Origin: an uncultured delta proteobacterium
GTDB lineage: Bacteria > Myxococcota > Myxococcia > Myxococcales > Myxococcaceae
Assembly: GCA_963771175.1 (NCBI GenBank)
Contig: CAVYSY010000026.1
Location: 320,001 to 384,000 of the forward strand
DNA length: 64,000 nucleotides
Reading direction: 5' to 3'
In this document: positions 25,431 to 59,759 of the stretch, piece by piece
How the letters are laid out: the number at the start of each line of letters is the position of its first letter
Numbering within the stretch: the first letter of the stretch is position 1
Notes under the pieces: model-generated
Database searches by the model: none
The model's input: the letters and a program-made list of their open reading frames with translations, nothing else
Told to the model about the DNA's origin: nothing
Made by a program: the position numbers and the translations under genes

Positions 25431-25460
25431 AGGGACGAACCAGCCAGGAGCCGCCTGACA
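25431..25460 (-). promoter_or_regulatory. Putative ECF promoter of rtcB
   Basis: Reverse strand TGTCAG-GCGGCTCCTGGCTGGTT-CGTCCCT (17-nt spacer). Confidence 0.7.
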
Positions 25461-25525
25461 CCCGACCGCGCCATCGTGGGAGACTCACGGAGAAGCAACT
25501 TCATGGAGAACGAGGGACGAGGCTC

Positions 25526-26161
25526 ATGCTGAACAGGCGAAGAACCTGGAAAGAAACGCGCAGGTATCCATTCACCGCCAGCCTCCTGCTGTGGGCATTT
25601 CTCTCGGGATGCCTCCATAAAGAACCGCCAGCCCCCCGGCTCGCGCCCGAGTGCAAGGCGCCAGGGCCCACGGGGCCTGACACAATCCCCTGCCGGGTGT
25701 CCCCCGACTGGGTCAGGCAACAGGCGGCCCCGCCTGTCCATCCCCTCATCCAAGCGGCATTTTCCGATGAAGCAACGACCCGCTGGCCCAAGATTCCACT
25801 CGCGTCCGTTGAAGAGAGCCTGACGGACAGTCATCGAATCCTGCTCACTGGGCGGCTCGCGATGGTGAGCGGAAAATCCCAGGGAGGAGAGTTCATGAGG
25901 TTCTTTGACAATGATTCCGATGGTTATGTGGATCGTGTGGATGAACTCATCCTCGGCCCAGATCGCAGCACCACGCGGATCGCGCGAGATACGAATCAGG
26001 ATGGCCGCCCGGACCAGCGAGAACTACTGATTTCATTCTGGCGGGAGAACGAATGGCAGCACCGAATAGCGACACTAGATGAACAAATCATCAAGACATC
26101 CAAGACATTGACCTGGAGCATGCATGGGTATGCGTGGCTCCAAAGCAACATAGAGGACTGA
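25526..26161 (+). CDS. Hypothetical lipoprotein, lower GC
   Basis: Lipobox FLSGC; DNDSDGYVD and DTNQDGRPD Ca-binding-like loops; AT-richer codon usage. Confidence 0.5.
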   Translation: MLNRRRTWKETRRYPFTASLLLWAFLSGCLHKEPPAPRLAPECKAPGPTGPDTIPCRVSPDWVRQQAAPPVHPLIQAAFSDEATTRWPKIPLASVEESLTDSHRILLTGRLAMVSGKSQGGEFMRFFDNDSDGYVDRVDELILGPDRSTTRIARDTNQDGRPDQRELLISFWRENEWQHRIATLDEQIIKTSKTLTWSMHGYAWLQSNIED

Positions 26162-26522
26162 ATGAATGCGCATGATGGATGCGCGAGGTCTCTCGCGTCC
26201 AACTGGCCAGGTGTTACTGCGGCAGTTCCACGCTGAAGTGCCCATCTGGATACAACGAATGATGGGGGAGTCTGGCGCGGCACGCACTCGCGCCACGCCG
26301 CCTGGGGGTTTCTGCAGGACCTGCTGAACAAGTTGCCGGAAGAAATTGCTGCGGTCGCGAAAACAGCGAGGGCCCATTGCCCCCCAACCCGGTGCCCTCC
26401 GCGCTCGCCCGACCGGTGGGCGGGAGAGGGGTCCTGACTTTCTGGGAACTCACCCTTGTTAGAGGCCAGAGGAGGTCACGCGGACCGACCCATGTGCGCC
26501 GCGCCGCACCTCGAGGAGAACC

Positions 26523-28811
26523 ATGGCCCACACGCAGGCGAGCGAGGGAATGCGGGAGGCGCCCTTCGTGGCGAGCAGCCAACCGATGCTCTGGATTGGG
26601 GGCGGCCTGCCCCCGCGTTTCCGCTGGGCGAGTCCCGCCCTCGTGCACGCCCTCGGCCATCCCCTGGAGGAGTGGAAGACCCGGGGCTTCTTCCGGCGAC
26701 TCGTGCACCCGGAGCATCTCGACCGGGTGATGGACGCCTGGCGCGGAGTGGCCCAGAGCGGGAGTCCCCCGGACGGTCGAGTTCCACGCGGTATCGGCGG
26801 AGGGAGGGCTCGTCCGTCTGTCCGTCGAGCTGAGCGCGATCGAGCCCACGGCCGACGGCGCGGGAGAGCTCATCGGCACCCTCCAAGTCCTCCCCTTCCG
26901 GCCCCAGGCGGCCCTGGAGTCGCCTGCCTCTCGCGATGGAGCGCAGGGATACGCCTCCCCGGCCTGCGCCTGCCTGCGGGTGGAGACGCCCACAGGCGCC
27001 GAGGTGGACCTCCGCGAGACGCTGGACGGGCTCCCTGGTCCCGCCTGGCTGGTGGGTGAGGACCTGTCCATCGTGTGGTGCAACCCGCCGAAGCAGGCGC
27101 ACGGCACCGAGGAGCTGCTGTGCTCCGCGGCCCGCGCCTCGGCTCCCCAGGGCTGGGCCTCGGCCCATCGCCGGGCTCTCGCGGGAGAGCTGGGGAGCTT
27201 CGACTTCACCACCTGTGGCCACTCCTACCGGTGCCGCGTGGGGCCGGTGAGGGGGACCGAGGGTGACATCGTCGCGGCCCTCGGGGTCGCCACCGACGTC
27301 TCCGACCTCGACGAAGTGGCCCAGGAGCTCACCCGCACCCAACGCCATGCACGAGGGGCTCGTCGATGCCATCGACGGCATCGTCTGGGAGGCCGATGCG
27401 AGCTTCCGCTTCACCTTCGTCAGCAAGCAGGCCGAGCGCCTGGCCGGCTATCCCGTCCAGCACTGGACGCAGGAGCCGGACTTCTGGCTGAAGCACCTCC
27501 ACCCCGAGGACCGGGACTGGGCTCCCGCCTTCTGCATGAAGGCGACGCTGGAGTGCAGGCCGCACGAGTTCGAGTACCGGATGCTCGCGGCCGACGGGCG
27601 CACCGTGTGGCTGCGCGACATCGTCACCGTGGTCTCCGAGAATGGAATCCCCCGCAAGCTGCGGGGCATCATGGTGGACGTCACCGAGCATCGCCGGGCC
27701 CGGGAGGACCTGGAGCACACGGTCTCGCTGCTGCGCGCCACGCTCGACTCGACGGCGGATGGAGTCATCGTGGTGGACCGGAACCGGCAGATCACCGCCT
27801 CCAACGGGAGGTTCCAGCGAGCTCTGGCACGTCCCGCCCGAGCTGGTGGACACCCGGGAGTGGGAGCAGGTGTTCGAGCACGTGCGCGCCCAGGTCCAGC
27901 ACCCGGAGCAGTTCACGGCGCGGCTCCTGGAGCTGTACGCGGACCCCGAGAAGGAGGGCGTCGACACCATGGAGCTGCGCGACGGGCGCATCCTCGAGCG
28001 CTACTCGCGCCCCCAGCGGTTGGGAGACACCATCGTCGGCCGCGTCTGGAGCTACCGGGACGTGACGGCGGAGCGCCGCGCGCAGGCGGAGCGGGAGCGG
28101 CTGCTCCGCGAGGCCCAGGAGGCCATCCGCGTCCGGGACGACTTCCTGTCCATCGCGTCACATGAGCTGAAGACTCCGCTCACCCCCCTCAAGCTCCACC
28201 TGCAGGTGCTGAAGCAGCGGGTGGCACCCGGGCGGCCCGTCTCGTCCCCACACGTGGAGAAGGCGCTCGCCCAGGTCACCCGGCTCTCCGGGCTCATCAA
28301 TGACCTGCTGGACACCTCGCGCATCCAGGCGGGACGACTGGAGCTGAAGCACGAGCCCGTGTCGCTCCGGGAGCTCACCCGCGAGGTGCTCGCGGACCTC
28401 CGCCCGGTCAGCACCGACCACACGCTCGAATACGAGGAGTCCGACGAGGCGCTCGTCATCGAAGGAGACCGCGGCCGGCTCGGCGCAGGTGCTGGTGAAC
28501 CTGCTGGAGAACGCCCTCAAGTACAGCCCCACGGGAGGGAGCATCCGCGTCCGGGTGGAGAGGGACGAGACACAGGCCCGCATCTCGGTGTCGGACTCGG
28601 GGATTGGAATTCCACCGGACCAGAAGGCCCACCTCTTCGAGCGCTTCTTCCGCGCCCGCAACGCCCCCATCTCGGGCTTCGGCGGGCTGGGCCTCGGGCT
28701 CTACATCTGCCGGGACATCGTCGAGCGCCACGGCGGCCGCATCTGGGTGGAGAGCGAGGTGGGCCAAGGCTCCACCTTCCGATTCACCCTCCCGGTGGTG
28801 GCGCACCCTGA
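26523..28811 (+). CDS. Multi-PAS sensor histidine kinase (frameshifted)
   Basis: PAS repeats (LVHPEH, HLHPEDR), H-box FLSIASHELKTPLT, NLLENALKYS, DSGIGI, GLGLGL. Confidence 0.88.
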
Positions 28812-28888
28812 ACCACGGCGGACGACACGCGGGGGACAGCCCCCCGTCGCGAACACCACCTTCCCACCGAGCTTCCAGCCTTCCCGGC

Positions 28889-30055
28889 TCAGGCCGGCTG
28901 CTTCACCATCTGCGGCCGCTTCTCGAAGGCCGCCAGCGTCTGGGCGATCTCCTGGTTCACCTGGCGCAGCAGGTCCTGCTTCTCGCGGAACGGCAGGAAG
29001 GCGCTCTTGAAGCCGGAGACGATGATGGTGGTCAGGTCCTCCAGCGACAGCCCCAGCTGCTTGTGCGCGACCCACAGCTCCTTCGTCACCGTGGTGTCGG
29101 TGATGAGCCGGTTGTCGGTGTTGATCGTCACCCGCAGGCCGTAGTCGAAGTAGAACTTCAGCGGGTGCGCCTCCAGGCTCGACACCGCGCCCGTCTGCAC
29201 GTTGGAGGTGGGGCACACCTCCAGCGGAATGCGGTGGTCGTTCACGTAGTTGAGCAGGTCGCCGTCCTCGCGCAGCCGCGTGCCGTGGCCGATGCGGTGC
29301 GCCCCCAGGTAGTGGATGGCCTGGGAGATGGACTCGGGCCCGAAGGCCTCGCCCGCGTGCGCCGTGCAGTTGACGTTGTTCTTGAGGATGAGCTGGAAGG
29401 CCTCCTTGTGGTCCTTGGCCGGGAAGTTCGCCTCGGCGCCCGCCAGGTCGAAGCCGATGACGCCCCGGTTCTTGTAGGCCACGCGACAGCTCCGCCAGCC
29501 GCATCGACGTCTGCGGGTTGATGTGGCGGATGCCGCAGACGATGACGCCGTATTTGGATGCCCGTCTCGCGCTTGGCCACGCCGCAGGCCCTCGAGCACC
29601 GAGTCGATGACCGTCGTCATCTTCAGGCCCTGCTGCAGGTGCAGCGCCGGCGAGTAGCGCACCTCCAGGTAGCGCACGTTCTCGGCCGCCGCGTCCACCG
29701 CCAGCTCGTAGGCCGAGCGGTAGAGCGACTCGGCCGTCTGCAGCACCGACAGCGTCACGTCGAAGGCCACCAGGTAGTCCTCGAGGCTCTTGCACACCTT
29801 CGCCCATGTGGATGGCCTTGGCCAGGCCGTCCTCGGTGTCCGCGGGCAGCTTCACCTTCTGCTGCTCGGCCAGCTCGAGGATCGTCTTGAGCCGCATGCG
29901 AGCCGTCGAGGTGGCAGTGCAGGTCCGTCTTGGGCAGCGCGTGGAGCAGCTCCTCGGTCACCGGGAGGGTCGGGGGCGCGGACCAATCAGCCCGTGCGAG
30001 CGGATGAGGGAATACCAGTCGAGCTGGGGAGCTCGTCGTCGCGAATCGAAGCCAT
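28889..30055 (-). CDS. add: Adenosine deaminase (frameshifted)
   Basis: LPKTDLHCHLDGS, GFDLAGAE, TAHAGE, HRIGHG, EVCPTSN, INTDN. Confidence 0.92.
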
Positions 30056-30109
30056 GTCGGGTTCCTTCCTTGCCAAGCATCCTAGGGGTCTGAAAATCCT
30101 CGCTCAACC

Positions 30110-31180
30110 ATGCCGTCATCCCTCTGTCAGCGCCTCGTCTTACAGCTCGCCATGGCGGCGCTGATGGCCGCCTGCCGGCAGCCCACCGACAAGCTCTTCG
30201 CCTTCTCCTCCGATGCCCCCTCCCGGGCGGCGCTCGTCCCCTTGGAAAACGGGGTGCTGGTGGGCAACGAGGCCGGCCGGCTCCTGCGCCTGGACCTCGC
30301 GGGCGAGTCGCCCTGGAAGGTGGAGCTCGGACGCGAGGTGGCCGCGCGCCCCACGGTGTCGGGGGACGGCGTCATCGTAGGAACGGTTGGCGGAACGCTC
30401 GTCAGCCTCGCGCTCGACCAGGGCACGGAGCGCTGGCGCCTCACCGGGCAGCCGCCCGTGCTCACCCCGCTCGTCTCGGATGCGAGCGCCGTCTACGTCG
30501 TGGCCCCGGACGGCACCGTGCGCGCCCATGCCGTGGACTCCGGCGAGGTGCGCTGGCGGCGCCCGTTCCCCTCGGGTGCGCCCCGGCCTCGATGCCACCC
30601 GGCCCCTCCCCTCCCCCGTCCTCGCGGGCGGCCTCGTGGTGGTGGTGCTCGGGGACGCGGGACTGTTCGCGCTGGCGCCGCGAGGATGGCGCGGTGCGTT
30701 GGCGCCGGCCACTGGCCCAGGTGCTGGGACTGGAGGCCCAGGGGGACGTGCTGTACGTCTCCACCCGGAAGGGGGAGGTGCTCGCGCTCGGGCTCGCGGA
30801 CGGGCAGGTGCGCTGGCGGCAGACCCCCGCGCCCGTCCTCACCAGCCCGCCGAGCTTCGCCCTGGGACAGGTGTGGGTGGGCGCGGAGGACAACCTGCTC
30901 CTGGCCCTGTCGCCCCAGGATGGGCGGGAAGTCTCGCGCATCGGCCTGCCCGCGCCCCTGGTGACGCAGGTGGCGGAGTACCGCGAGTGGTTGCTGGTGC
31001 CCACGCGCGGCAGCCAGGGGTGGCTGATCGCGCTCGAGCCCGGAAAGGGGCCTCCGGTCTTCTCGCTGCGGCTGGACACGCCGCTGCTCACCCGGCCGGT
31101 GGTGCATCGGGGACCAGCTCTTCGTGCTGGGCCAGGACGGGCGCGTGCTGTCGTGGCGGCTCCAGCCCCCGAAGTCGTGA
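30110..31180 (+). CDS. PQQ-like beta-propeller lipoprotein (frameshifted)
   Basis: Lipobox LMAAC; repeated A.D..G.VRW blade motifs. Confidence 0.8.
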
Positions 31181-31196
31181 GCCGAAGTGGACCTCA

Positions 31197-31267
31197 CTTG
31201 TAGACGTCTACAAGCGAAGCAGCACCATTCCCCACATCAACCCACACCGCTTGTAGACGTCTACAAG
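31197..31267. repeat. Pair of perfect 18-bp palindromes CTTGTAGACGTCTACAAG
   Basis: Copies at 31197-31214 and 31250-31267. Confidence 0.88.
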
Positions 31268-31295
31268 TGAGCCGCGCCAGATCCCGCATTCTGGA

Positions 31296-32175
31296 ATGGA
31301 GAGTGGGCTACGGTGTCCGAGGCGGCGTCGCGTGCTGGAGAGGTGCGGCTTGTCCACGCCGTCTGGCAGTTCGAGCCCGGCAGGTGCGCGGCGACGGCTC
31401 CTGGCGGGCGACGCTGGCTCTGGGCACCCTGCTGCTCTCCAGCCGCGTGCGTCACGGGCGCGAGGCTGCCAAGGGTGGTCAGGAGCTGGCGCGGACGGCA
31501 GAGTGGGTGGACTCAAGCTGACGAGCAGTGCTGTGGGCTCGCCGCTGTGTGTGCCGCTCCGGCGGCCGGCGGAGAGTGTCGTCCCCACCACGGTGCAAAA
31601 GCTGGCGGAGGCGGCGGAGGCTGTCCAGGGACTCACCCGGACTTCCTCGACGAGGCCGAGGTGGCCCGGGTCGAGAAGGTCCTCGTCCAGTGCGCCAAGG
31701 AGGCCGACTACCAGGTCATCAACGGGAGCATCCCAAGGAGGGGTACCCAAGTGACACCGAGTGCAACCGCGTCGTTGGGTACGACAGAGTCGGCGAGAAA
31801 GTGACGCGTGCCATGGAACTCGGGACGATGAAGCGTGATCACCTTTCCTGGTCGAGCGAGAACTCGGGCCGGGAATCTCGACCGCCTATTCGCCAGGGAA
31901 CCGCGCTACGGCAAGAAACCGCCGGGCGAAAGTACGCCCTCACCGATGATAGGACGGGACCTCTCGTCCCCGACATCGTTCTGCACCTGGTGCGCGAACG
32001 CCGAACAGAATTCAATTCCTCTACGACTTCCTGTTCCCCTGTACCGCCGAGAGCAAGAGCGAGCCGCTCGGAGAGCAGAGTCAGAAGGTGCGGAAGCTGG
32101 ATAAGTACAAGGACCCCTCGCAGGAGGACGGACATGCGCGCTCTCGTGACGCCTCAGCTTGGAATCAGCCGATGA
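31296..32175 (+). pseudogene. Lipoprotein toxin with PD-(D/E)XK/VRR-NUC-like nuclease tip, multiply frameshifted
   Basis: Fragments LSSACVTG, CAKEADYQV, RAMELGTMK, LVPDIVLH, YDFLFPC; upstream of a DUF3396 gene. Confidence 0.55.
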
Positions 32176-33155
32176 CCGAGCACTACCCCCGGCTGCGTCG
32201 TCTACTCCTCCCAGCAGGGGGAGACCACCTCGTCCAGCGGAAGTGGTTAGGCTCGTCGTGCACCTTCCGTTTGACCACTATGACCTCTCGGACGGAGTGA
32301 ACCGTGCGCTCGATGTGTACCTCCGCGCTATTGGACAGGGACCGGAAATTCTTTCGGAGTGGTGCGACGTCTGGCGAATTCGACGCATTTCCGCTGGATG
32401 AGTGCGGGTGGGAGTTCGTCCGGTCAGCGCTTTCGACACTCGCGGGGGACGCTTCCTCGACGACGTCAAAGACGAGCAATACGTCCATCGCCCGGTGAAG
32501 AAACAGTTCACCGTGCGCTGGCTGTTGGGTGGGTCATCGGGCGTCGTGGCTATGGATTCTTCTACTGGGCCCGCCTGCCTGGCGTACTCCCGTGGAGGAA
32601 AGGGTCACGCATCGGTGGCGCTTCTCCTGGCCCACGGAGTACCTCGAGGAGCACGGCCCCGGGACGAGTGAGGGGAGTTGCGCATGGAGCTGGCGTCAGT
32701 CCTGCCCTTCTCCTCCGGCCACGCCGGCCTCGCCTTCTTATTCGCCCAACCCCTTCGTGCGCTTCCATGGAAAGGGATTCGCGAGGACGCCTTCCGGTAC
32801 CCGGGGCTGGATGTGGCCCACGGCAGCACGATCCCTCGGGCCCCGCGTGGATGGCGTGCATTGGCTCAACTTCCTCGGCCAGCCAGTGCTGGGGGAGTTG
32901 GGCGGCGCCGCGGGCCTGCGCACCCGGCTGCACTCCCCTGGAACCACCGTCCAGGAGCTGGAGGGCGAGCGGGTCGTGGTGACGCTGGGAGAGTGGCCGG
33001 AGGCTGGAGACCTGGCGCGAGGCCAGGACCTCCCCGCGTACCGCGAACTCGCACATGTGCTGGAGCCCTGGCTGTACCAGTGCCCCAGCTACGAAGCGTT
33101 CCACGGCACCACACACGAGGAAACCGTTCGCTGGTGGCGCCGCTTCCTCGATTGA
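32172..33155 (+). CDS. DUF3396/TsiV-type immunity protein (frameshifted)
   Basis: MTEHYPRLR..., [60 protein letters not shown]. Confidence 0.8.
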
Positions 33156-33165
33156 GTGCGGATGC

Positions 33166-35526
33166 TCAGCCCGGCATCAGGAAGCGCGCGATGACGCGCT
33201 TGAGGCCCACGCTCCGTCCGAACTCCACCGTCACCTTCGCGTTGGGGCCGTTTCCGTCCGTCGACACGATGCGCCCCATGCCGAACTGCTCGTGGCGCAC
33301 CGACATGCCGCGCACGTCTCCGCCCTCGCCGTCCATTCCGAGGCCTGCGAGTAGGAGCGGTCGATGCGCGGCCCGTCATCGTCCTCGAAGTGGCGCCGGC
33401 GCTGCACCATCGGAGATGCCCTCGAGGGCGGCGTCTCCAATCCTCTCCGCGAAGCCGAAGAGCGCCTGCGGCACCTCGCGCAGGAAGCGCGAGGGCGGGT
33501 TGTAGCGCAGCTCGCCGAAGAGGCGCGCGGCACTGCGCCAAGCGTGACGAACAGCCGCTTGCGCGCGCGCGTGAAGCCCACGTAGCAGAGCCGCCGCTCC
33601 TCGGCCATCTCCTCCCCGTCCGGGTCCTCCGCCGCCAGCGAGCGCGGCAGTGCGGGAAGACCCCGTCCTCCATGCCGGTGATGAACACCGCGTCGAACTC
33701 GAGCCCCTTCGCCGCGTGCAGCGTCATCAGCGCCACCCGGCCCTCGCCCACGTCCGCGTCCGCGTCGCCCACCAGCGCTGATCTGCTCCAGGAAGGCCTG
33801 CAGCGCGGGCACGTCCGCCGTAAGCGGCGAGGGTCCAGGCCCTCGTCCTCCGGCGCGCGCGGGCGCGCGTCCTCGCCCTCTTCGTCCCCGCCGAGGCCGC
33901 CGCCACGGCCGCGGCCGCGCGGTTCAGGTCGAACTCCTGCGCGGCGCCCAGGAACTCGCGCAGGTTCTCCGCGCGCGTCAGCGACTCGTCGGTGCCCTCG
34001 GCGATGAGCGCCTCCACCAGCGTGCGAGTCCTTGAGCATCTGGTCCACCGCGCTCGCCGCGTCCTGGGCCTCCTGCGCGAAGGCGTGCAGCGAGGACACC
34101 AGCCGCGTGGAAGCCGGTGAGCCGGCGCACCGCCGCCGAGTTGAGGCCGGTAATCCGCTCGGGCGCCGCGAGTCGCCTCGTAGAGGCTCACGCCCGCCTG
34201 GTTGGCCCAGTCCTCCAGCCGCTCCACCGTGGTGTCGCCGATGCCGCGCGCCGGCGTGTTGATGACGCGCAGCAGGTCCGCGTCCGAGCGCGGGTTCACC
34301 ATCAGGCGCAGGTAGGCCGCCGCGTCCCGGACCTCGGCCCGGTCGTAGAAGCTGCGCCCGCTCACCAGCGTGTAGGGCACGCGCGCCAGCCGCAGCGCCT
34401 CCTCCAGCACGCGGCTCTGCGCGTTCGTCCGGTAGAAGACCGCCATCCCCGAGTACTTGATGAAGCCCTCGCGCTGCAGCTCGTGGATGCGGCGCGCCAC
34501 CTCCTGGGCCTCGGCGCGCTCGTCGCGGTTCATCAGCAGCGTGAGGTTGCTCGCCCTTGGGCCGCTCGCTCCACAGCTTCTTCGCCATGCGCCGCGTGTT
34601 CGCGCGCGATGACCGCGTGCGCCGCGTCGAGGATGTTCTGGTCCGAGCGGTAGTTCTGCTCCAGCTTCACCACCCGCGCGCCCGGGTAGTGGTCCGGGAA
34701 GTGGAGGATGTTGTCCACGCTCGCGCCGCGCCAGCGGTAGATGGACTGGTCGTCGTCGCCCACCACCACCAGGTTGGCGACGCCGCTCCGGCGGAGCCAG
34801 CAGGCGCAGCAGCTCGTACTGCACGGGGTTGGTGTCCTGGAACTCGTCCACCAGGATGTGCTGGAAGCGCCGCCGGTAGTGGTCCAGCACGTCCGGGCGC
34901 TTGCGGAAGAGCCGCCACCAGCAGCAGCAGCAGGTCGCCGAAGTCCACCGCGTTCGCCGCGCGCAGCAGCCGCTGGTAGGCGCGGTAGGTCTTCTGCACC
35001 ACCCCGCCGCGCAGGTCGTCCACGTCCACCACCATGCTCGTCCGGGAGGCGGGCGGCGTTCTTCTCCTGGTCGATGCGGTGGAGGATCTCCCGCGGCTGC
35101 ATGACGGGGTCCATCGCGGACCTCGCGCATGGCGCGCTTGACGAGCTGGAGCTGGTCCCCGTCGTCGTAGATGACGAACGAGGGGGTGAGCCCCAGCAAC
35201 TCCGCTACCGACTCGTCCCGGAGGACGCGGCGAAGAATCATCGACGCCGAGGAGTGGAAGGTGCTCACCACCAGCTCGTGCGCCTGGAAGCCGAGGAGCT
35301 GGACGAGCCGCTCGCGCATCTCGCGCGCGGCCTTGTTGGTGAAGGTGACGGCGAGGATGCGCCACGGCGCGACGCCGCGCACCTGGACCAGGTGGGCCAT
35401 CCGGCGGGTGATGACGCGCGTCTTGCCGCTGCCCGCGCCGGACAGCACGAGGAGCGGGCCATCCCCATGGAGGACCGCTTCCCTCTGGGGCTCGTTCAGG
35501 TCTTTGAGGAGTTCGTCGGCGTTCAA
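33166..35526 (-). CDS. uvrD: UvrD/PcrA ATP-dependent DNA helicase (frameshifted)
   Basis: [67 protein letters not shown]. Confidence 0.92.
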
Positions 35527-35645
35527 GGCAGGGTGCTCTTCTAGAGGCAAACCCTGCTTGTAACGAGTTTCCGCCCATCTGGAAGGACGTTCAGCGGTGG
35601 GGGCCCCTCGCCTGCCCTGCTGGGGAGCATGTCTCCCCGAGCGGC

Positions 35646-38778: not shown

Positions 38779-38789
38779 AAGGCTCCGCC

Positions 38790-40636: not shown

Positions 40637-41824
40637 TTAGAAGGAGAAATCCCGCTCGAAGAGCTCGCTGTTGCCCACCCGCACCATCAGGTGGGCGGAG
40701 CGACCGCCGGCACCGGTACCGAGGTCGAACTCGAGACCTTCCGGACCTTGCTGGGGCTTGAGCGAGGGCTTGCCGGGGGCGAGGAACACCGCCGCGGTCA
40801 CGGCACGGCCCGAGAGGGGTTGCACCAGGAGCCGGGAGCGCTGGCGCTCGCGAACGAGCACCACGCGGAACTCCCGCCGCTCCTCGAGGACTTCGCGATG
40901 CTCGGGGTGGCGCGCGGCACCGGGCCTGCGCGCGGGGGCGGGCTCACGCGAGGAACGGGCAACGGGCATGGGCTGCTCCTCGTCCCGCAGCGCCTTCTCG
41001 ATGGCGTTGTCCCCCTCCTCCAGGGCCCAGATGGCCTGCGCGCAATCGAGGCATTTCTGCGTGTGGCGATCCACCCAGGCCAGCTCGTTCGCGGACATCA
41101 TCCCCATGTCGAAGCGCCACAACTCGTCTTCGCTCAGGTGGAGCAACTGCCCCTTGGGTGGCTCCTCGACGCTCGCGGTGCTCTGGAGATCCGCGCGACA
41201 GTCGGGGCAACTCCGCAGGTGGGGACTCGGTCGCTCGGGCTCGTTGCCCAGGGCCGCCAGGAAGTCGTCACAGTCCGCGCGATCGTTGAACCACCAGGCG
41301 AGTGTCCTCTCGGCGGCATCGAGCACGTCGCGCTCGGCTCTGCGCTGCGCGTTGAGGGGGATGAACCAGCGGGCCTTCGAACGGAGCGCGGCGTCCAGAC
41401 GTCCGAGGCCCTCGCGAAACGCCTTCAACCGCGATGCTGAGTCTCCGTCGAGCGCGCCATGAAGTGCTTCCCACTCGCCTATCGCGCGGACGGCGGACTC
41501 GGCCCTGTCTCGCGCGGAGAGACCTTCCAACGAGGAGCTGCGCCACACCTCGGACTCCACGCCGTCTTCCCCGAGGGCCACCTCGGCGGCCTCCTCCGCG
41601 GCACGGAGGAGCGCGGGCTGGAGCGCCTCGGGCTTCTGCGCTCGGAGCCAGGTGTCGATGTCCGCACGACTCAAGCCCCGCAGGGCCTGCTCCACTCCGT
41701 CCCGTCCCAACCGCTCGCCGCGCCGGAGAACGTCTCCAATCGCCACGAGGGAACCGTCCGCGGGAGCGCTACCCCGCGCGAGCTGCTCACGACGGGACTG
41801 ATAACGAGAGAGTGTGTCGGACAT
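40637..41824 (-). CDS. Putative soluble zinc-binding anti-sigma factor
   Basis: Directly downstream of the ECF sigma; two Hx3Cx2C motifs (HLRSCPDC, HTQKCLDC); no obvious TM segment. Confidence 0.65.
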   Translation of the reverse strand: MSDTLSRYQSRREQLARGSAPADGSLVAIGDVLRRGERLGRDGVEQALRGLSRADIDTWLRAQKPEALQPALLRAAEEAAEVALGEDGVESEVWRSSSLEGLSARDRAESAVRAIGEWEALHGALDGDSASRLKAFREGLGRLDAALRSKARWFIPLNAQRRAERDVLDAAERTLAWWFNDRADCDDFLAALGNEPERPSPHLRSCPDCRADLQSTASVEEPPKGQLLHLSEDELWRFDMGMMSANELAWVDRHTQKCLDCAQAIWALEEGDNAIEKALRDEEQPMPVARSSREPAPARRPGAARHPEHREVLEERREFRVVLVRERQRSRLLVQPLSGRAVTAAVFLAPGKPSLKPQQGPEGLEFDLGTGAGGRSAHLMVRVGNSELFERDFSF

Positions 41825-41853: not shown

Positions 41854-42516
41854 TCACTCCTGCCCGCCCTCCTTCTGGAGGTCGAGCAGGTAGAGCTTCA
41901 GGTAGGCCTGTGCGCGGCTGACGCGCTTGTACGAGTTGACCACGGTGATGTTGAGTCTCCGGGCGCATTCCTCGTGGTCCTCTACGTCCTGGTGGTGGTA
42001 CAGGTCCCACGCACCAGCTTCCTTGGGATGCTCACGCTGCAGGCGCTCGAAGGCGCGCCAGTAGAGTTCCTGGGCCTCGGTGCGCTCCTCGTCCCGCCGC
42101 GACTTGTCCATCGCGCGGTGCGCATCGACGGGCGACTCCTCCGGAGCCTCATCGGGGTTGGCCACGGCTGGCGCGAGGTCCTCGCGCTGCCGCCGGTAGA
42201 AGTCGATGGCCACGTGCTTGACGATGCGCAGGAAGAACGTCTTGGGAGACGCACTGCGCCCGGGCATCTGCTCGGAGACACCGCGGAACTGGTCGAGGCC
42301 GCGGTCGAGGAACTTGCCGATCGCGTCCTGGTAGAGCTCGTCCGCGTCCGCTGGAGAGCCGCGGCCATAGCTGGCCTGGATTTTGGAAATGACGTAGCGG
42401 GCCGGACGGGCCCAGCGCTCGCAGAGCGCGCCAAGCGGGGCTCCGACCGCCTCACCCGCGGCGCGGCGTTGGAGCACCTCTGCGAACAGTTCGTCATCCG
42501 TGAGCTCGTCGAACAC
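41854..42516 (-). CDS. ECF RNA polymerase sigma factor
   Basis: DADELYQDAIGKFL, FFLRIVKHVAIDFYRR, HEECARRLNITVVNSYKRVSRA. Confidence 0.85.
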   Translation of the reverse strand: MFDELTDDELFAEVLQRRAAGEAVGAPLGALCERWARPARYVISKIQASYGRGSPADADELYQDAIGKFLDRGLDQFRGVSEQMPGRSASPKTFFLRIVKHVAIDFYRRQREDLAPAVANPDEAPEESPVDAHRAMDKSRRDEERTEAQELYWRAFERLQREHPKEAGAWDLYHHQDVEDHEECARRLNITVVNSYKRVSRAQAYLKLYLLDLQKEGGQE

Positions 42517-42682
42517 CGGAAGGACCTCGGAGCGCCGCCAGGAGGCAAGAGACCCCCGCCTGGGCAGGGTGGGGTTCGGTGAAACGGCGGGTCAAGGTAG
42601 CACGACGGCATCCGAAGGCAGCCTCCCGATTACACCAGCGCCGTGTGTCCGACAGCGGGCACACGAAGGGCGTCTGAAAGGC

Positions 42683-42711
42683 AGGACGGAACCCGGGGGG
42701 GATTCCTGACG
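42683..42711 (-). promoter_or_regulatory. Putative autoregulatory ECF promoter of the sigma/anti-sigma operon
   Basis: Reverse strand CGTCAG-GAATCCCCCCCGGGTTC-CGTCCT (17-nt spacer). Confidence 0.7.
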
Positions 42712-42792: not shown

Positions 42793-42822
42793 CGTCAGGA
42801 GGGGCGGCTGCGCCCCGTCCCT
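42793..42822 (+). promoter_or_regulatory. Putative ECF promoter of the metallophosphoesterase
   Basis: CGTCAG-GAGGGGCGGCTGCGCCC-CGTCCCT (17-nt spacer). Confidence 0.7.
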
Positions 42823-42854: not shown

Positions 42855-43559
42855 ATGTCCCGCACCATCGTCATCGGAGACCTCCACGGGTGTTACGACG
42901 AAGCCCTGGAGCTTCTCGACCGCGTGGGCGCCACCTCGAGTGATCGGATCATCTTCACGGGTGACCTCGTCGACCGAGGCCCCAAGCGCCGCGAGTGCGT
43001 CGAGCTGGCCATGCAGCACGAGTCCATCCTCGGCAACCACGAGGAGAAGCACCTGCAGCAGCGCCGCCGCAAGGACGCCGACCTCCTGCCGGATCATCTG
43101 GAGACCCGGCAGGTCCTCGGCCCCGAGCACCTCGAGTACTTCGCCACCCTGCCCCACTTCATCCGCCTGCCCGAGCACAACGCCGTCGTCGTCCACGCCG
43201 GAGTGCTGCCCGGAAAGGCCATCGAGGAGCAGGACACCTATCACCTGCTCCATGCCCAGTGCGTGAGGCCCCCGGAGCGCAAGAGCTTCTGGCCCTCCAA
43301 GGCGCCCACCGACTACCGCTTCTGGACGCACCACTGGAAGGGCCCCGAGCGCGTCATCTTCGGGCACACCGTGTTCGACCGGCCGCTCGTCACCGAGCAC
43401 GCGGTGGGCATCGACACCGGGTGCGTCTACGGCCGCTCGCTCACGGCGGTGGTGCTCCCCACGTGGGAGCTCGTCTCGGTGCCCGCGCGCCAGACGTACC
43501 GGGGCGGCAAGGACGTGGCCCTGCTCCCGGTCCACGGCGATGTGAACGTGTTCTCGTGA
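42855..43559 (+). CDS. Calcineurin-like metallophosphoesterase (PrpE/ApaH/Pnkp-phosphatase type)
   Basis: GDLHG, GDLVDRG, GNHE, VHAG, FGH, IDTG motifs. Confidence 0.9.
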   Translation: MSRTIVIGDLHGCYDEALELLDRVGATSSDRIIFTGDLVDRGPKRRECVELAMQHESILGNHEEKHLQQRRRKDADLLPDHLETRQVLGPEHLEYFATLPHFIRLPEHNAVVVHAGVLPGKAIEEQDTYHLLHAQCVRPPERKSFWPSKAPTDYRFWTHHWKGPERVIFGHTVFDRPLVTEHAVGIDTGCVYGRSLTAVVLPTWELVSVPARQTYRGGKDVALLPVHGDVNVFS

Positions 43560-47734: not shown

Positions 47735-47763
47735 TGTCAGGAATGAGGGGCCGCCACGTCCCT
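47735..47763 (+). promoter_or_regulatory. Putative ECF promoter of the vWA operon
   Basis: TGTCAG-GAATGAGGGGCCGCCA-CGTCCCT (16-nt spacer). Confidence 0.7.
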
Positions 47764-47798: not shown

Positions 47799-49567
47799 AT
47801 GACCACCCAGAACCAGACCACCCCCACGCTCCCCGAGGCCCAGCGCGGCCCGGCGGAGAAGCTCCTGGACCTCGTCCTCGGGGGCTCCGCGCACCTGTGG
47901 CACAACCGCCCGGGCCTGGACGTGAACGGCGTCTGGCACCCGGCCCAGGCGGCGAAGCCGGACCTCGTCCGCCGCGGCACCCCGGTGAAGCCCGGCCTCT
48001 TCGTGCCCGCCGCGGTGAAGCTCTACGGCCAGCTGCTGGACATCTACCGGCTCAACACGGACCTGATGGCGCACTTCGCCTCCTACGCGCTCACGCAGAC
48101 GGACTGGCGCGATCTCAAGGTGGCCACCTGCGCGCTGATGCTCGTGCAGAGCCACTCCGGGCAGCCCGTGCGCGAGGACGACGGCTCCATCGCGTTCCAC
48201 GACGACGACTTCCGCGCCATCGGCGAGGCCATGCTCCTCCACTACGAGCGCAAGTCCACGCGCATGCTCACGCCCAAGGCGGTGCTGCGGGTGGCCGAGC
48301 TGCTCGAGACGCCGGAGATCGCCCGCCTCAACCGCGAGGCCGGCTTCGGTGACCCCGCGTCCCGCAAGCCGCCGCTCGGCCGCTGGAAGCGCGTGGCGAC
48401 GAAGTGGCTGCGGCTGCGCGAGCAGAACCTGCCCATGCTCCAGGGCCTGGTGAAGGCCGGCTACAAGGAGACGCTCAAGAGGATCGCCCGCAAGGCCGGT
48501 TACAAGCCGGTGTCGCAGGCCTTCTTCGAGGTGCTCGGCTGGAAGCAGAAGCAGGCGGCCGCGGGCCACCGCTCGGTGGGCCTGGAGGGACTCAAGCTCG
48601 TCAAGCGGGAGCGCTTCGACGGGCTCTCGGAGGCGGAGATCTGCGAGTGGATCGAGCTGGAGCGCCTCTCCTACAAGGAGGTGGTGGGCCGGCTGCCCAA
48701 GGACCTGGGCCTGACGCCGGCCATCATGGCGGCGCTCCTGCCCTCGCTGTCGGACCGCGACTTGCGCATGCTGACGCCCACGCTCGAGGAGCTGGGGCTG
48801 ATGTCCGACCCCGCGATCCGCGCGCGCTGGGAGAAGGCGGTCGCAGACGGCGACCGACCAGCGCGCGCTCCACATCGCGAAGAACGTCCGCAGCCAGGAG
48901 CTGAAGGCGAAGCTGGAGGAGGCGAGCGACAACGCGGCGAAGGCGGCGGTGGCGGAGGCGACGGCCGAGACGGACGTGAGGGTGATGTTCCTCATCGACA
49001 AGTCGGGCTCCATGGAGGGCGCCATCGAGCAGTCCAAGGAGGCGCTGTCGCGCATCCTCGCCGGCTTCCCGCTGGAGAAGCTGCACATCGCGTCGTTCGA
49101 CACGATGGGCACGGTGCTGAAGCCCAAGGCGGCGAGCCGGGCGGCGGTGCAGCACATGCTCGCAGGGGATTCAGGCGTCGGGCGGCACGACGCACGCGGC
49201 CGGTGTGCATGCGCTGCACCGGGCGGGAGTGCGGGTGCCGGAGGAGGCGAAGCTCGTCGTCATCGTCGTGGGTGACGAGGCCGGCGAGGCGGGTGACCAG
49301 TTCGCCCGCGCCTTCCGCGAGTGCGGCTACAGCGTGGCCGCCATGGCGCTGCTGGTGAGCGTGGCCAGCACGCGGGGCAGCACCGTGCGCACGTGCGCGG
49401 CGCAGCTCCGGGTGCCGTTCAGCGAGGTGCAGGTGGACCAGTTCGAGGACCCGTACCAGGTCCCCCGCGTGCTCAAGGCGCTGATGGACGCGCCGACGGC
49501 GACCGGGGCCAGCCAGTCCGGCTGGGTCGAGCGGGTGATGCGCACGCCGCTGCTGAAGGTGGCGTGA
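47799..49567 (+). CDS. Large helical N-domain + C-terminal vWA domain protein (frameshifted)
   Basis: MIDAS motif FLIDKSGSMEG, then GGT and VVGDE elements; frameshifts near 48845 and 49165. Confidence 0.8.
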
Positions 49568-49574
49568 GAGAGGA

Positions 49575-50575
49575 GTGGGTGTCGTGGACTACCGGAAGTT
49601 CCTCGGGAAGGTGGAGTCGGCGGTGCTGCCCTACTTCGGCGGCGCCTCCGTCGACGCGGCCTCGCGGCGCCTCCGCGTGTCCACGCCGCCCGCTCCGGGC
49701 TGGTGGCGCTTCGACGTGCAGGGGCGCACCGCCACCGCGCGGGAGCCGGCCGAGCCGGAAGGGCTCGACGGGCTCCCGCTCATTCGTGGACATCTCTGGG
49801 GCTCGCGGTTGGTGCGCGAGGGCGCGGTGGCCGAGCCGGTGAAGCTCCTCCCCGAGGAGGAGCCGCCGCGCTTCTCGCCGCTGCGCGCCCGGCGCTGGCA
49901 TGACGGGACGCTCGTCTTCGAGGGGCTCGACTTCGAGGGCGAGGCCGAGGGCACCGCACGCCTCCTGTTGGAGGAAGGCCGGGCGCTCGCGGAGGTGAAG
50001 GCCGTGCCGGCGTCGCTGCGGGCGGCCTTCGGTTACGCGGTGCTGGAGGGTGCCTCGCGCGCGCTCGGCATCCGCTTCTCCCCGGTCGAGGTGCGTGGAC
50101 AGGTGCTGTCCGTGTCCGAGGGAGGCCGTCCCGCGGCCGAGGCCCGGCTGCGGGCCCTGGCCGCCGAGCGCGAGGCCCACGTGCGGGCAGTGGAGGCACG
50201 GCCACGGGCGCGTGGAGGTCCAGCGGCAGCGGGCGGTGGAGGAGGTCCGGCTGCAGGCGGAACTGGCGCGACTGCGGAGCCAGCCGCGTCACCTGCAGCA
50301 GCAGGCGCAGGGGGCCGTGCGGGTGGAGCGGGCGTTGGAGGCGGCGGGGGCGCGGCTGCTCGACACGCGGCGGCTGGGGAGCGAGCGGCTCGAGGTGACG
50401 TTCGGCTTCATGGGCGAGCGCTTCATCAGCATCGTCGAGGCGAGACACGCTGCAGGTGGTGGACGCGGGCATCTGCCTCGCGGGAGCGGACCGGGAGGTG
50501 ACGCTGGAGAGCCTGCCGTCGGTCATCCGCGAGGCCATCGAGGACGACGTGCTGGTCATCACCCGGCACGCGTGA
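49575..50575 (+). CDS. Hypothetical protein with coiled coil and C-terminal E2-like DAGICL motif (frameshifted)
   Basis: Joined frames end ...LEVTFGFMGERFISIV...LQVVDAGICLAGADREVTLESLPSVIREAIEDDVLVITRHA*. Confidence 0.6.
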
Positions 50576-50585: not shown

Positions 50586-51048
50586 ATGGACAAGCGCGAG
50601 GTCTGCCTGCTCATCGGCCGGGACGGGACGGTGCTGTGGAGCGATGCCTCGGACAGTCCCGTGCTGGCTGCCGGACTCGCGCGCACGCTGGGAGGCCATC
50701 TGGCGGCTGCGCGACGAGCTGGAGGAGATTGCTCACAGCCACCCGGTGGGACCGCTGGGCTTCAGCGCCGAGGACGAGACGACGATGGCGGCGCTCACCG
50801 AGGCGCTCGGACGGCCAGTGCGCTTCTCGGTGGTGGCGCCCGACGGCATGGTGGTGCGCGAGGACGGTCGAGACTTCATCGTCACCGAAGAGCCCGCCTG
50901 GGCCGGACACATGCGGGCCGACTCCGGAATGAGCTCCCTCGACCATCCGGCGGTAACCGCACCTCCTCTCCGCCCTCCAGAAGGTGACACTCGTCGGTTC
51001 GACGGAGACTTCTTCGAGGCGCATGAGCCGGTAGGATGCGGCGCGTGA
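50586..51048 (+). CDS. JAB/MPN metallo-isopeptidase (frameshifted, end uncertain)
   Basis: N-terminal REVCLLI (catalytic Glu) and AHSHPVGPLGFSAED (HxH-x7-S-x2-D JAMM motif). Confidence 0.8.
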
Positions 51049-55858: not shown

Positions 55859-55860
55859 GT

Positions 55861-55890
55861 CGTCAGGAACACCGTCCGCCTCACGTCTCC
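55861..55890 (+). promoter_or_regulatory. Putative ECF promoter of the Ubl-E1 operon
   Basis: CGTCAG-GAACACCGTCCGCCTCA-CGTCTCC (17-nt spacer). Confidence 0.65.
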
Positions 55891-55955: not shown

Positions 55956-56201
55956 ATGGCGACGCTGAACATCACCTACAACGGGCTGTCCTCGGACCTG
56001 CCGCTGGAGCTGGACGGCCACGTGGCGGACGTGGACGTGCGGCGCATCGCGGTGGAGGTGGTGCGCTCGGGCGGGGCGCCGGGGCTGCACATCGCCAACC
56101 TGCGCGAGGACGCCTTCGCCCACTACGTGGTGGACCGGTTCCGCGGGCCCCGGGGCGAGGAGCGCATCTACCTGCGGCCCAAGGTGCCCTTCGGGGCGTG
56201 A
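55956..56201 (+). CDS. Putative ubiquitin-like (beta-grasp) protein, 81 aa
   Basis: GAGGAGG RBS; N-terminal beta hairpin (ATLNITYNGLSSDL), helix, C-terminal IYLRPKVPFG-A; immediately upstream of the ThiF gene. Confidence 0.65.
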   Translation: MATLNITYNGLSSDLPLELDGHVADVDVRRIAVEVVRSGGAPGLHIANLREDAFAHYVVDRFRGPRGEERIYLRPKVPFGA

Positions 56202-56214
56202 GGGAGGGCCCACC

Positions 56215-56793
56215 ATGCGCATCGTCTTCTGCGGAGTGGGGGCCATCGGCTCCACGGCGGCGGTGCTGTGCCGCAACCTGGAGGCGACGCTCGTCTTCAT
56301 CGACTTCGACCGGGTGGAGTCCAAGAACCTGCTGGCGCAGGCCTTCGTGAAGCCCTCGGTGGGGAAGAACAAGGCGGAGGCGCTGAAGCTCCAGTTGCTC
56401 AACCTGCACGGGGTGAAGGCCGAGGCCTTCGGCGTGCGGGTGACGCGGGACAACGTGGCGGCGCTGTGCGGGAGCGCGGACCTGCTCGTCGACTGCTTCG
56501 ACAACCAGGAGAGCCGGCTGCTGCTGAGCGGGTTCGCCCGGAGCGCGGGCAAGCCGCTGGTGCACGGGGCGCTGGCGGCGGACGGCACCTTCGGGCTGGT
56601 GCGCTGGGACGAGCGCTTCGTCCCGGACGCCGAGGACACCGTGGGCCAGGCCACCTGCGAGGGCGGCGCGCACCTGCCGCTCATCGGCCAGCTCGGCGCC
56701 ACGCTCGCACGGGTAGTGCAGGACTTCGTGAAGCACGGCACTCGCCGTGACGCGATGGTGAGCCTCGTGGCGGTGACGCCGACCGCGAGCTGA
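56215..56793 (+). CDS. ThiF/MoeB/E1-like adenylyltransferase
   Basis: CGVGAIGS, IDFDRVESKNLLAQ, GKNKAEA, VDCFDN; candidate Cys in ATCEG. Confidence 0.88.
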   Translation: MRIVFCGVGAIGSTAAVLCRNLEATLVFIDFDRVESKNLLAQAFVKPSVGKNKAEALKLQLLNLHGVKAEAFGVRVTRDNVAALCGSADLLVDCFDNQESRLLLSGFARSAGKPLVHGALAADGTFGLVRWDERFVPDAEDTVGQATCEGGAHLPLIGQLGATLARVVQDFVKHGTRRDAMVSLVAVTPTAS

Positions 56794-56828
56794 AGGAAGG
56801 GGGATATGCTCCAGGGCACGAGGTCCTC

Positions 56829-57422: not shown

Positions 57423-57430
57423 CCCGGGGC

Positions 57431-58207: not shown

Positions 58208-58227
58208 GGAGCCGCCATACTACCGGC

Positions 58228-59614
58228 TCACGGGGAGGGCCAGCGCTCCAGTTCCATCTCGTCGAGGAACACCGTGTGGTTGTTGCCGTTCAGCGGCTGG
58301 ACGGCGATGCCGCGCACGGCCTTCAGGGTGAGCCCGTCGTTGGGTGCGCCCGCGGGCTGCCAGTCGTTCCGCCGGGTGAAGGCCGACAGGGGCACGCTCA
58401 TCCACTTCCAGCCGACGTTGTCATCCTTGAAGCCGAACTCGAAGCGCTCGGCCGAGTCCGCGCTGTCGCCGTTGTCCCACAGCTCCAGGCGGAAGGAGTC
58501 TCCGGTGTTGGTGCCGTGGAACCAGAAGTTCAGGTAGTGCCCCTGGCTCCAATCCAGGGGCGTCTCGAAGGTGCGCGCGAGGCTGGCCTGCGACGAGCTG
58601 GCGATGTCGTACTCCAGCACGAACGTGTTCCCCACGTGCCCATACTCATGCAGCCAGACGTTGAGCCGCGAGCCCGACCCGACCGACATCGTCCAGGTGC
58701 CGAGCGCCTCGAAGTCCTCCACCACCTCCTTCGGAGCGGCCAGCCCGTAGCGGACCTCGTCATAGAAGGAGACCATCGGCGAGCCCGGCCAGGTGAAGGA
58801 GCCCATCCAGTACTCGGTGCCCGGACCGACGCCGGGCCAGAAGTTCATGATGATCCGCCCCGGATGGGAGGGCAACGACCCCAGCGGGCCCGTCGCGCTC
58901 TGGACACGCGAGCCGTCGACGTACCAGTGGAGGGCCTCGCGCGTCCATTCGAGGCCGTAGGTGTGGAAGGCCTCCGCGGCGTCGAAGGGAAGGTCGAGCC
59001 CCGCGTAGTGGCCCTGTCCGTTGACCACGTAGTTCATCTGCATCCGCCGGGTGTTCAGCCCGACGAAGGCGATGTCGATGCCATCCCAGCGCGTATTCTC
59101 AGCCGGGCCCGTGTAGATGCTGAAGGACGTCAGCGTGCCCGAGCCGCGCGCGGGCTTCATCCGGACCTCGTAGCGCCCGTAGCCGTGGAGCCGCGTGGAG
59201 GCGACCTCGCCCGAAGCATAGGGGCGGCCGGAGCACCCGTCCGGGCACGGCGTCTTGTCGAGCTGCAGCTCCAGGATCCCACCGTTGGCCCGCACGTGGT
59301 CGGCACGCCAGCCGGCATTGAAGTCCTCGCTGCTGGCCCAGCCATCCGAGCGGCGCCAACGCGTGGTGTCGAACGTGTCGAACGTGTCGTCGAAGGTCCC
59401 AGGGCCCTCCAGCCAGGAGAGTGTCGGGGGGCCACCGTCGACGCCGCCGACATAATCGCTACTTCCCGCGTCCGTCCCACCAGCCACCGCCACCTCCTCC
59501 CTGCCCCACACCTCCATCGGAGGTGGAGATGCCGTCGTAGTCGGACCAGCGGCAGCCCGCCTGGAGCAGACCGGTCGCCAGCAGGAGCAGTCCCCATCTC
59601 ACGTTGCGAGCCAT
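58228..59614 (-). CDS. GH16 (lichenase-like) lipoprotein with C-terminal CBM-like domain; catalytic glutamates absent
   Basis: Lipobox LQAGC; YASGE, YGRYEVRMKPA, FHTYG, IMNFWPG; WDGIDIAF in place of WDEIDIEF. Confidence 0.8.
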
Positions 59615-59730
59615 GTGTCGCACCCTCCTTGGACGCGCATGGCGCCGAATCTACCAAGCCGGGCCCTCCCGGGTGCGCCGCCTGGCTGCTCGCTCTCCGA
59701 AACCGTCCGAAAAACTCCGGGAAAATGCCG

Positions 59731-59759
59731 CGTCAGGATTCCGGGAACCCAGCGTCCAT
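59731..59759 (+). promoter_or_regulatory. Putative ECF promoter of the tRNA array
   Basis: CGTCAG-GATTCCGGGAACCCAG-CGTCCAT (16-nt spacer). Confidence 0.7.

Follow-up and report, generated by a model that had tools for sequence, protein, structure and literature searches.

A conserved bipartite promoter motif beside an ECF-type sigma factor suggests a translation-damage regulon in Myxococcota

We analysed a stretch of 64,000 nucleotides (nt) from a Myxococcaceae genome (assembly GCA_963771175.1, contig CAVYSY010000026.1, positions 320,001 to 384,000; hereafter the window), in which the bipartite motif GTCAGG-N15/16-CGTC precedes six dispersed units, and we propose that this motif is the promoter of the divergent extracytoplasmic function (ECF)-type sigma factor encoded at window positions 41854..42516. 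Taken together, the evidence makes it likely that the motif drives a translation-damage regulon with an anti-sigma factor and, at a tRNA array, a second gate. In the proposed mechanism, the sigma factor would drive its own operon from a promoter of the extended form GTCAGG(aa)-N15/16-CGTC, the soluble protein encoded just downstream would keep it inactive, and blocked translation or cut RNAs, as caused by ribosome-targeting antibiotics or ribotoxins, would release it. The released sigma factor would then switch on RNA healing and sealing (RtcB, RtcB2, a metallophosphoesterase, MJ1316-EEP-2H-PAP, RlaP, AAA33-Thg1 and R2K-TROVE), a spare complement of tRNAs, rescue by tmRNA or an ArfB-like factor, export of drugs (MATE; CmlA/FloR in Myxococcus xanthus) and a module of a ubiquitin-like protein (Ubl), E1, JAB, vWA and a protein that we call X. 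Comparison between genomes brings out the promoter footprint, the list of targets, their co-occurrence with the sigma factor and the alternative pairings of the array leader.

Six sites in the window and their conservation

The looser pattern GTCAGG-N14-17-CGTC was found six times in the window, always with a spacer of 15 or 16 nt, and on the strands and upstream of the units named in the original prediction. Shuffled windows gave a mean of 1.6 matches to the same looser pattern and reached six in 1 of 100. The source genome (9.83 Mb) contains 56 matches to the N15/16 pattern, or 0.36 per 64 kb, and every 64-kb bin other than the window, which holds all six sites, has at most two; the Poisson probability is 2.4e-6 per window, for 154 windows and a pattern chosen post hoc. 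The gene labels were confirmed as well, with Pfam returning RtcB, Sigma70_r2, a weak zf-HC2, Metallophos, VWA, a weak Prok-JAB, ThiF and HNH, and ARAGORN returning 13 tRNAs.

Conservation upstream of orthologues, a check named beforehand, brought out the footprint. Orthologues of five units were fetched from 41 genomes (23 genera) and the 500 nt upstream of each were read, the counts including the source genome. The site 120 nt upstream of rtcB (25434..25459, minus strand, N16) is exact at 15 of 17 orthologous loci and carries one mismatch at the other two, and the putatively autoregulatory site 168 nt upstream of the sigma gene (42685..42710, minus strand, N16) is exact in 21 of 22 orthologues. 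Exact sites precede 18 of 20 orthologues of the metallophosphoesterase (42794..42819, plus strand, N16), 19 of 21 of the vWA operon (47736..47760, plus strand, N15; a further locus, which holds the second fragment of a split gene, is left out) and 19 of 21 of Ubl-E1 (55862..55887, plus strand, N16), the last with one mismatch in the remaining two. Altogether, six of the nine loci without an exact site across these five units carry a one-mismatch site. The sixth site, that of the tRNA array (59732..59756, plus strand, N15), is present in 15/15 array loci. Across orthologues the two boxes are fixed, and what varies is the sequence of the spacer and how far from the gene the site lies. Exact sites were found upstream of none of six distant RtcB homologues and none of ten metallophosphoesterase paralogues, and matched in-gene control stretches had zero exact matches. 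By this comparison, the six window sites are a real, conserved promoter footprint. The original prediction had suspected that the shorter spacers (16 nt as counted there, N15 here) were shortened at homopolymers in an indel-prone assembly, in which ferrochelatase, UvrD, vWA, X and JAB are each split into pieces. We rejected this idea for the spacers, since N15 is kept in 18/18 close vWA orthologues and 15/15 tRNA-array leaders; the short spacers are thus genuine.

The sigma factor and its putative partner

The proposed reader of the motif is a protein of 220 amino acids (aa; 41854..42516, minus strand), in which region 2 is matched by PF04542 (E 2.6e-7) and region 4 has no Pfam match; TIGR02937 gives 42 bits over residues 37-209, just under its cut-off of 42.9, and a comparison with PDB sequences returned zero matches. 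The gene is single-copy in 22 of the 41 genomes, and the sigma, vWA, Ubl and close metallophosphoesterase genes are confined to the same 5 of 23 genera. A wider sample comprised the best 80 of 153 sigma relatives in named genomes, including Archangium, Cystobacter, Myxococcus xanthus AM003, Corallococcus, Hyalangium and Polyangiaceae and partly overlapping the 41-genome set. The motif precedes the sigma gene at all 79 of these loci that had enough upstream DNA, from Archangium to Polyangiaceae (57 exact and 22 one-mismatch sites, spacer 15-16), a count that is tempered by the kinship of the genomes, which are not independent samples. For comparison, 1500 random upstream regions contained 4 exact and 58 one-mismatch sites. 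Within 1.35 Mb around sigma loci there are 65 matches with N15 and 90 with N16, versus 2-9 for other spacers.

The distribution of the motif over whole genomes also follows this sigma factor. With phase-matched spacers as the control for chance expectation, the genome-wide scan called for by the original prediction found the motif enriched in non-coding DNA of the source genome (N16, 23 observed versus 9.3 expected; N15, 17 versus 7.1). In coding DNA N16 is depleted (8 versus 36 expected, P 2e-8) and N15 is undepleted (8 versus 7.2). The N16/N19 totals are 650/1272 in the 22 genomes with the sigma factor and 482/493 in the 19 without it, which suggests that genomes with the sigma factor avoid the N16 motif overall and that this avoidance tracks its presence. 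Within the window's own family, two other sigma-bearing genera have N16/N19 totals of 8/65 and 21/61, and two further ones are near 1 (20/24 and 27/28); here, too, kinship limits the independence of the counts.

A second ECF sigma factor with a zf-HC2 partner (37676-39908, plus strand) adjoins the locus across Myxococcaceae and is without the motif. This neighbour (37676-38242) was considered as the reader and rejected, as no site lies within 800 nt of it in 16/16 loci and the gene was not found in two motif-bearing genomes (G018 and G025). In agreement with the original prediction, which had named the sigma factor at 41854-42516, these sequence comparisons make it very likely that this protein reads the motif as a -35/-10 promoter: the motif precedes its own gene, motif avoidance tracks it, and the neighbouring ECF fails on both counts.

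Directly downstream of the sigma gene lies the gene of a putative soluble anti-sigma factor of 395 aa (40637..41824, minus strand), which is present at 81 of the 84 loci examined, 80 of these centred on the sigma gene and four not. The protein has a helical N-terminal part and a C-terminal beta-sandwich, with two CxxC motifs in close relatives only. A model of the sigma/anti-sigma complex scored 0.77 versus 0.00 for the best control, its contacts agreed by at least 79% between runs and the partner had a pLDDT of at least 78; the mark used for such models is reached by 116 of 157 solved pairs and 2 of 215 mismatched pairs. As such, the model supports binding between the two proteins. A fold search with the putative anti-sigma factor returned generic beta-sandwiches only (best Z 8.7), barely covering the N-terminal part. 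In ECF216, a Myxococcales ECF group, the anti-sigma factors of subgroup 2 are mostly transmembrane (PMC7826278), and neither GTCAG nor RtcB was found in a portion of the supplement to the ECF classification (Casas-Pastor 2021). The 5' leader of the sigma operon (42517-42684, minus strand), 161-173 nt long in most close relatives, folds strongly and may represent another layer of control.

Targets in the window and beyond

The tRNA array (60045..61301, plus strand) contains 13 genes called by ARAGORN, for Tyr, Lys, Gly, Gln, Asn, Pro (two), Arg, Met, Phe, Thr, Val and Leu. Also within the array, at 61050-61127 (plus strand), is a tRNA-like sequence whose anticodon loop carries GTG; missed by ARAGORN and Rfam, it is probably the array's 14th gene, a tRNA-His, which is also found in the array of several relatives. 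At the array's end stands an HNH nuclease gene (61328..61870, plus strand; PF01844, E 3e-15), and in both M. xanthus AM003 and Myxococcus sp. Y35 it likewise comes after a tRNA array. In Hyalangium a 25-tRNA array lies about 8 kb from the sigma gene, and six dispersed tRNAs of the source genome, on three contigs, score 0.82-0.91 against that array, versus 0.44-0.69 for site-less copies, from which it follows that the array was split and that each piece retained a promoter. About 2 kb past the window's array is a gene for a Clp-type AAA protein whose C-terminal domain is of the PCRF (release-factor) type (63267-64000, plus strand); Myxococcus sp. Y35 has a similar AAA gene just past its HNH gene (L152:3328-6176), and a motif site of their own was not seen for the AAA genes.

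The promoter site of the array was correctly placed by the original prediction, which missed the attenuator-like leader that follows it. In leader-peptide attenuators of the trp or antibiotic-sensing type, the last codons of a short open reading frame (ORF) overlap the antiterminator strand upstream of a terminator hairpin, and the array leader resembles them in this arrangement. In the window, a ribosome-binding site at +11 is followed at +26 by an ORF of 57 aa (59783..59956, plus strand), in which the final codons (59939-59956) are predicted to serve as the antiterminator strand, and then by a middle hairpin and a terminator-like hairpin with a short U-tract (59960..60030, plus strand; 5' arm 59986-59999, 3' arm from 60012). 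Nineteen leaders share a ribosome-binding site at +10/11, an ATG at +25/26, a reading frame kept through indels, an end in P-G/S-L/F-type codons and a stop 31-40 nt upstream of the conserved hairpin. In the predicted nascent fold, the last six leader codons pair over 9-12 bp with the 5' arm of the hairpin in 19/19 leaders (P <=0.05 against shuffles in 18), so that in all 19 the ORF is predicted to overlap an antiterminator whose formation rules out the terminator. A ribosome completing the leader ORF would cover the antiterminator and let the terminator form, and with ribosomes stalled or never loaded the antiterminator would pair first and the tRNAs would be transcribed. Unlike known leader-peptide attenuators, this one would have a tRNA array as its output. 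Its leader, at 44-62 aa, is long as well as variable and, being without a run of one amino acid, would sense general translation failure. Several results weigh against this reading: full-length folds have the terminator 1.7-12.1 kcal/mol stabler than the antiterminator, a simple terminator scan of the leaders called 0 terminators, the U-tract being short, and among three further leaders the pairing beats shuffles in two and is no better than shuffles in the third (P 0.185). The leader pattern was also unmatched at a Polyangiaceae array (L208). On balance, the RNA folding models make it fairly likely that the leader is an attenuator opened when translation stalls.

The Ubl module is spread over two operons of the window, both on the plus strand. 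The first encodes a protein of about 590 aa with a C-terminal vWA domain (47799..49567; frameshifted here, intact in relatives), protein X of about 330 aa, in which two OB-like barrels and a long helix accompany a C-terminal domain (49584..50575; frameshifted here), and a JAB/JAMM peptidase of about 120 aa (50586..51048, end approximate; PF14464, E 0.0022; frameshifted here), whose metal motif E...HSH...S..D is invariant in an alignment of 17 orthologues. The second encodes an 81-aa putative Ubl ending in KVPFG plus 0-7 residues (55956..56201), in which PFG is invariant in 16/16, with zero PDB sequence matches and unnamed Atlas clusters, and a ThiF/E1 enzyme of about 192 aa (56215..56793; PF00899, E 7.6e-21) with an invariant GxGxxG and a conserved cysteine (ATCEGG) that is likewise invariant in the alignment. 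The genes for vWA, X, JAB, Ubl and E1 are joined in a single run in several distant genomes, where they point away from the sigma gene, and at a Polyangiaceae locus the run vWA-X-JAB-Ubl-E1 is followed by the tRNA array.

Protein X had been labelled E2-like. The cysteine of this label stands, as the D[AS]G[IV]CL cysteine of the C-terminal domain is invariant (Cys in 150/150 relatives). The fold is suggestive at best: the match to Ubc9 (Z 4.8, rmsd 3.9, 80 residues aligned) and FANCL (Z 4.6) is weak and tied with the ribosome hibernation factors HPF/RaiA (Z 4.6-4.7), Foldseek gave no match for X at E<=0.001, the C-terminal alignment found nothing significant among PDB and Pfam sequences, and Atlas offered no usable named match. 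From these models, it is plausible that X acts as a minimal cysteine E2, and we give Ubl conjugation through X slightly less than even chances. The module shares a putative Ubl with a conserved near-terminal Gly, an E1 and a JAB peptidase with the Bub (6E/DUF6527) operons (PMC11601596). Unlike the BubAB/BubCD or BubBD fusions, Ubl, E1, JAB and X are separate genes in the relatives; E1 and X keep invariant cysteines where Bub has Tyr/Ser; there is a vWA partner; and the proposed sigma control takes the place of WYL or CapH/CapP control (PMC11601596). Pfam found no match to DUF6527, which is BubE, among the 80 window ORFs. The module is thus not a Bub operon.

The window's remaining targets are RtcB RNA ligase (23889..25313, minus strand; PF01139, E 5.7e-90) and a calcineurin-like, ApaH/Pnkp-phosphatase-like metallophosphoesterase (42855..43559, plus strand), which lies below all family cut-offs and is a candidate RNA end-healing enzyme. 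Six units had been claimed as the regulon; the limit to six does not hold, since the motif lies upstream of many further genes and, by the sequence evidence, the regulon is genome-wide in the source genome, where 40 of the 56 N15/16 matches are non-coding. A matrix built from 161 sites, all from other genomes, gives 15 non-coding and 0 coding matches at a score >=21, versus 1-2 for control spacers. Off-window sites precede a second RtcB (RtcB2, release_rtcB type), MJ1316-EEP-2H-PAP, two RlaP, AAA33 + Thg1, R2K + TROVE/Ro60, an ARPP-2 operon, Band 7, Rnk, MATE, a tRNA-Arg with CCA enzyme and mnmA, and seven further tRNA clusters and tmRNA; for five of the off-window targets, a site with at most one mismatch is present in 13/13 orthologues found. 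M. xanthus AM003 has 31 exact sites, including those of sigma, metallophosphoesterase, Ubl, RtcB2, R2K, MJ1316 and RlaP as well as an ArfB-like factor, SerRS, an RNase II/R family gene, MATE, cmlA/floR and tRNA-Gly/Leu. The tmRNA site was found in 19 of 21 sigma-bearing genomes (6 exact) and 0 of 9 without the sigma factor, among 30 loci fetched of 38. These RNA-repair, tRNA, rescue and efflux genes give comparative support to the RNA/translation-damage theme that had been put forward from the window, and we propose that the regulon is conserved across Myxococcota. Sites upstream of tuf-operon tRNAs, rplJ and dnaG were left out of the core target list.

Some strong sites have unexplained sequence behind them, in which an Rfam scan found zero families. 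At L126:304-470 (G000 C24:286003, plus strand) a strong site is followed by a non-coding stretch with the tRNA T-loop-like GGTTCGACTCC and a short U-run, without an Rfam match, which is possibly a tRNA-like or Y-type small RNA. Proteins without a Pfam or NCBIfam match are encoded directly behind conserved sites at L149:328-1206 (G000 C56) and L120:447-1952 (G000 C4), the latter being the ARPP-2 partner.

Inducing signal, alternative explanations and known systems

The regulon is probably induced by blocked translation or by cut translation RNAs. In M. xanthus DK1622 treated with chloramphenicol, RNA sequencing gave log2 fold changes of +8.09 for the HNH gene MXAN_1486, +5.28 for tRNA-Tyr MXAN_1491, +5.27/+2.94 for tRNA-Gly/Leu MXAN_0380/0381, +5.60 for cmlA/floR MXAN_2566 and +3.0 to +3.9 for a MATE (PMC6617876, text section 13, Tables S6 and S7). 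The MXAN_2566 primers match locus L233 exactly (4/4), where an exact site lies about 280 nt upstream of the coding segment, and in AM003 the array from tRNA-Tyr through HNH stands behind a one-mismatch site and a leader.

Against the regulon as proposed stand a number of results. In the DK1622 data chloramphenicol altered the expression of 1920 genes, 625 of which rose, each condition is represented by a single sequencing accession, the authors put the tRNA rise down to fast growth, and mapping of three example induced sigma factors to the 41854 sigma failed (PMC6617876). The MXAN tRNA and HNH tags are tied to motif loci by annotation and order only, and the MATE is unmapped. By synteny, the sigma gene of DK1622 would lie near MXAN_1510, and it would then not be among the three example induced sigma factors. 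Three raw RNA runs, for which conditions are not stated, have mostly unstranded background at the M. xanthus locus, with a stranded excess over the sigma operon, start sites not seen and little or nothing over the divergent targets; we infer the start sites, as well as the release of the anti-sigma factor. About 16 of the 40 exact non-coding N15/16 matches, or about half by our overall estimate, are expected by chance. The tmRNA site is mostly conserved inside one genus, is missing in two sigma-bearing genomes and, at L360 and its relatives, is interleaved with a sigma70-like TTGAC...TTAAGGT/TTATGGT promoter, an overlap that suggests dual control of tmRNA. The CCA-adding enzyme was rejected as a core target, having a site in 4 of 22 sigma-bearing genomes; a Polyangiaceae genome has a site upstream of another CCA-type gene.

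With the same sigma factor and promoter, the main trigger could instead be phage or a rival's toxin, the Ubl/E1/JAB module and HNH serving defence. At L138:284-3200 (G000 C33:101383, plus strand) a strong site lies 14 nt upstream of a gene that we take, from its motif, to be DUF262-like. A fragmented HipA-like gene comes next, and both lie in an island of low GC; the promoter may have been captured there by a defence island. Related bacterial Ubl operons are, moreover, tied to immune-type regulators (PMC11601596). However, most identified targets belong to RNA repair, tRNA supply, rescue and efflux, and chloramphenicol alone induces several of them (PMC6617876), so that we regard defence as an unlikely main trigger. 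Since phage and toxins also damage translation, both triggers are compatible.

It is improbable that the sites are a genuine promoter or operator read by another factor, be it another sigma factor or a TrcR-type repressor, with the 41854 sigma merely among the targets. Myxobacteria have many ECF sigma factors and GTCA...CGTC-like boxes are common in ECF promoters, both of which favour such a factor. Yet the invariable site before the 41854 sigma gene and the avoidance that tracks this sigma factor argue for it as the reader, the adjacent ECF lacks the site, and the constant gap of 15-16 nt between the boxes, together with a ribosome-binding site that begins 11 nt past CGTC, fits a -35/-10 promoter rather than a palindromic operator. 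That the sites are functionless, through chance or shared flanking ancestry, is highly improbable. In its favour, 1 of 100 window shuffles reaches six with the looser pattern and genome totals do not exceed a reversed-pattern control in the close genus or M. xanthus AM003. That control is uninformative because it ignores codon phase, for which phase-matched spacers were used instead, and the flat totals are accounted for by gain in non-coding and loss in coding DNA. The boxes persist where the spacers and gene distances differ, the site is absent before paralogues, and split-off tRNA clusters each kept it. The orthologue footprint refutes chance for the six window sites and leaves it likely for some weak off-window matches.

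The regulon of the 41854 sigma, as we propose it, is closest to that of TrcR in Anabaena PCC 7120, which is autoregulated, controls the silent trn tRNA array, rtcB, HNH nucleases, slipin (Band 7), a RimK ATP-grasp protein and an exporter, and is switched on by antibiotics that block elongation, chloramphenicol among them (PMC10272220). Here, too, the shared motif places a tRNA array, rtcB and HNH under one autoregulated regulator, with two RtcB, Band 7, R2K ATP-grasp and MATE/MFS as further likenesses. Unlike TrcR, a repressor with an 8-bp site near the -10 box, the regulator proposed here is an ECF sigma factor with a soluble partner and a bipartite promoter (PMC10272220). What goes beyond TrcR is the putative gate at the leader peptide, a far broader range of RNA-repair genes, tmRNA and the Ubl/E1/JAB module.

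The RtcR RNA-repair operon has a known link to rsr and Y RNA. As under RtcR/sigma54 in E. coli and Salmonella, RtcB would be stress-induced and the regulon includes a Ro/TROVE partner (PMC12754779, PMC10272220). Unlike RtcR, a CARF enhancer-binding protein acting on one operon, the present system has dozens of dispersed sites and an ECF-type promoter. In the open-access literature, we found no description of this sigma factor or its regulon.

For bacterial tRNA arrays, the many myxobacterial RtcB paralogues, the orphan RNA-repair enzymes RlaP, Thg1-like and MJ1316, and bacterial Ubl operons, few triggers or contexts are known, and one promoter would join them all in one response, in an organism that is amenable to genetics. 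If true, RNA repair would have a third mode of regulation beside RtcR/sigma54 and TrcR, a Ubl system would take its place in translation quality control, and the supply of tRNA would be under an attenuator that responds to failing translation. Here we also speculate, as a possibility that we consider rather doubtful, about a phylum-wide 'RNA SOS response' of Myxococcota, in which a cytoplasmic anti-sigma factor of a new kind would sense damaged RNA or stalled ribosomes and free an unclassified ECF sigma factor, a ribosome-read attenuator would gate a complete spare tRNA set, and a new four-gene Ubl pathway, with a minimal cysteine E2 bearing RNA-binding OB folds and a vWA partner, would tag damaged ribosomes or ribonucleoproteins for repair or turnover.

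Elsewhere in the window, 3099-11700 and 26463-36400 contain dense frameshifts in ordinary genes (ferrochelatase, glycogen enzymes, histidine kinase and UvrD), which point to sequencing indels in the assembly. A Tox-REase-5 domain protein (524-1951, minus strand) and a TsiV-type immunity gene fragment (32499-33155, plus strand) are unrelated to the regulon.

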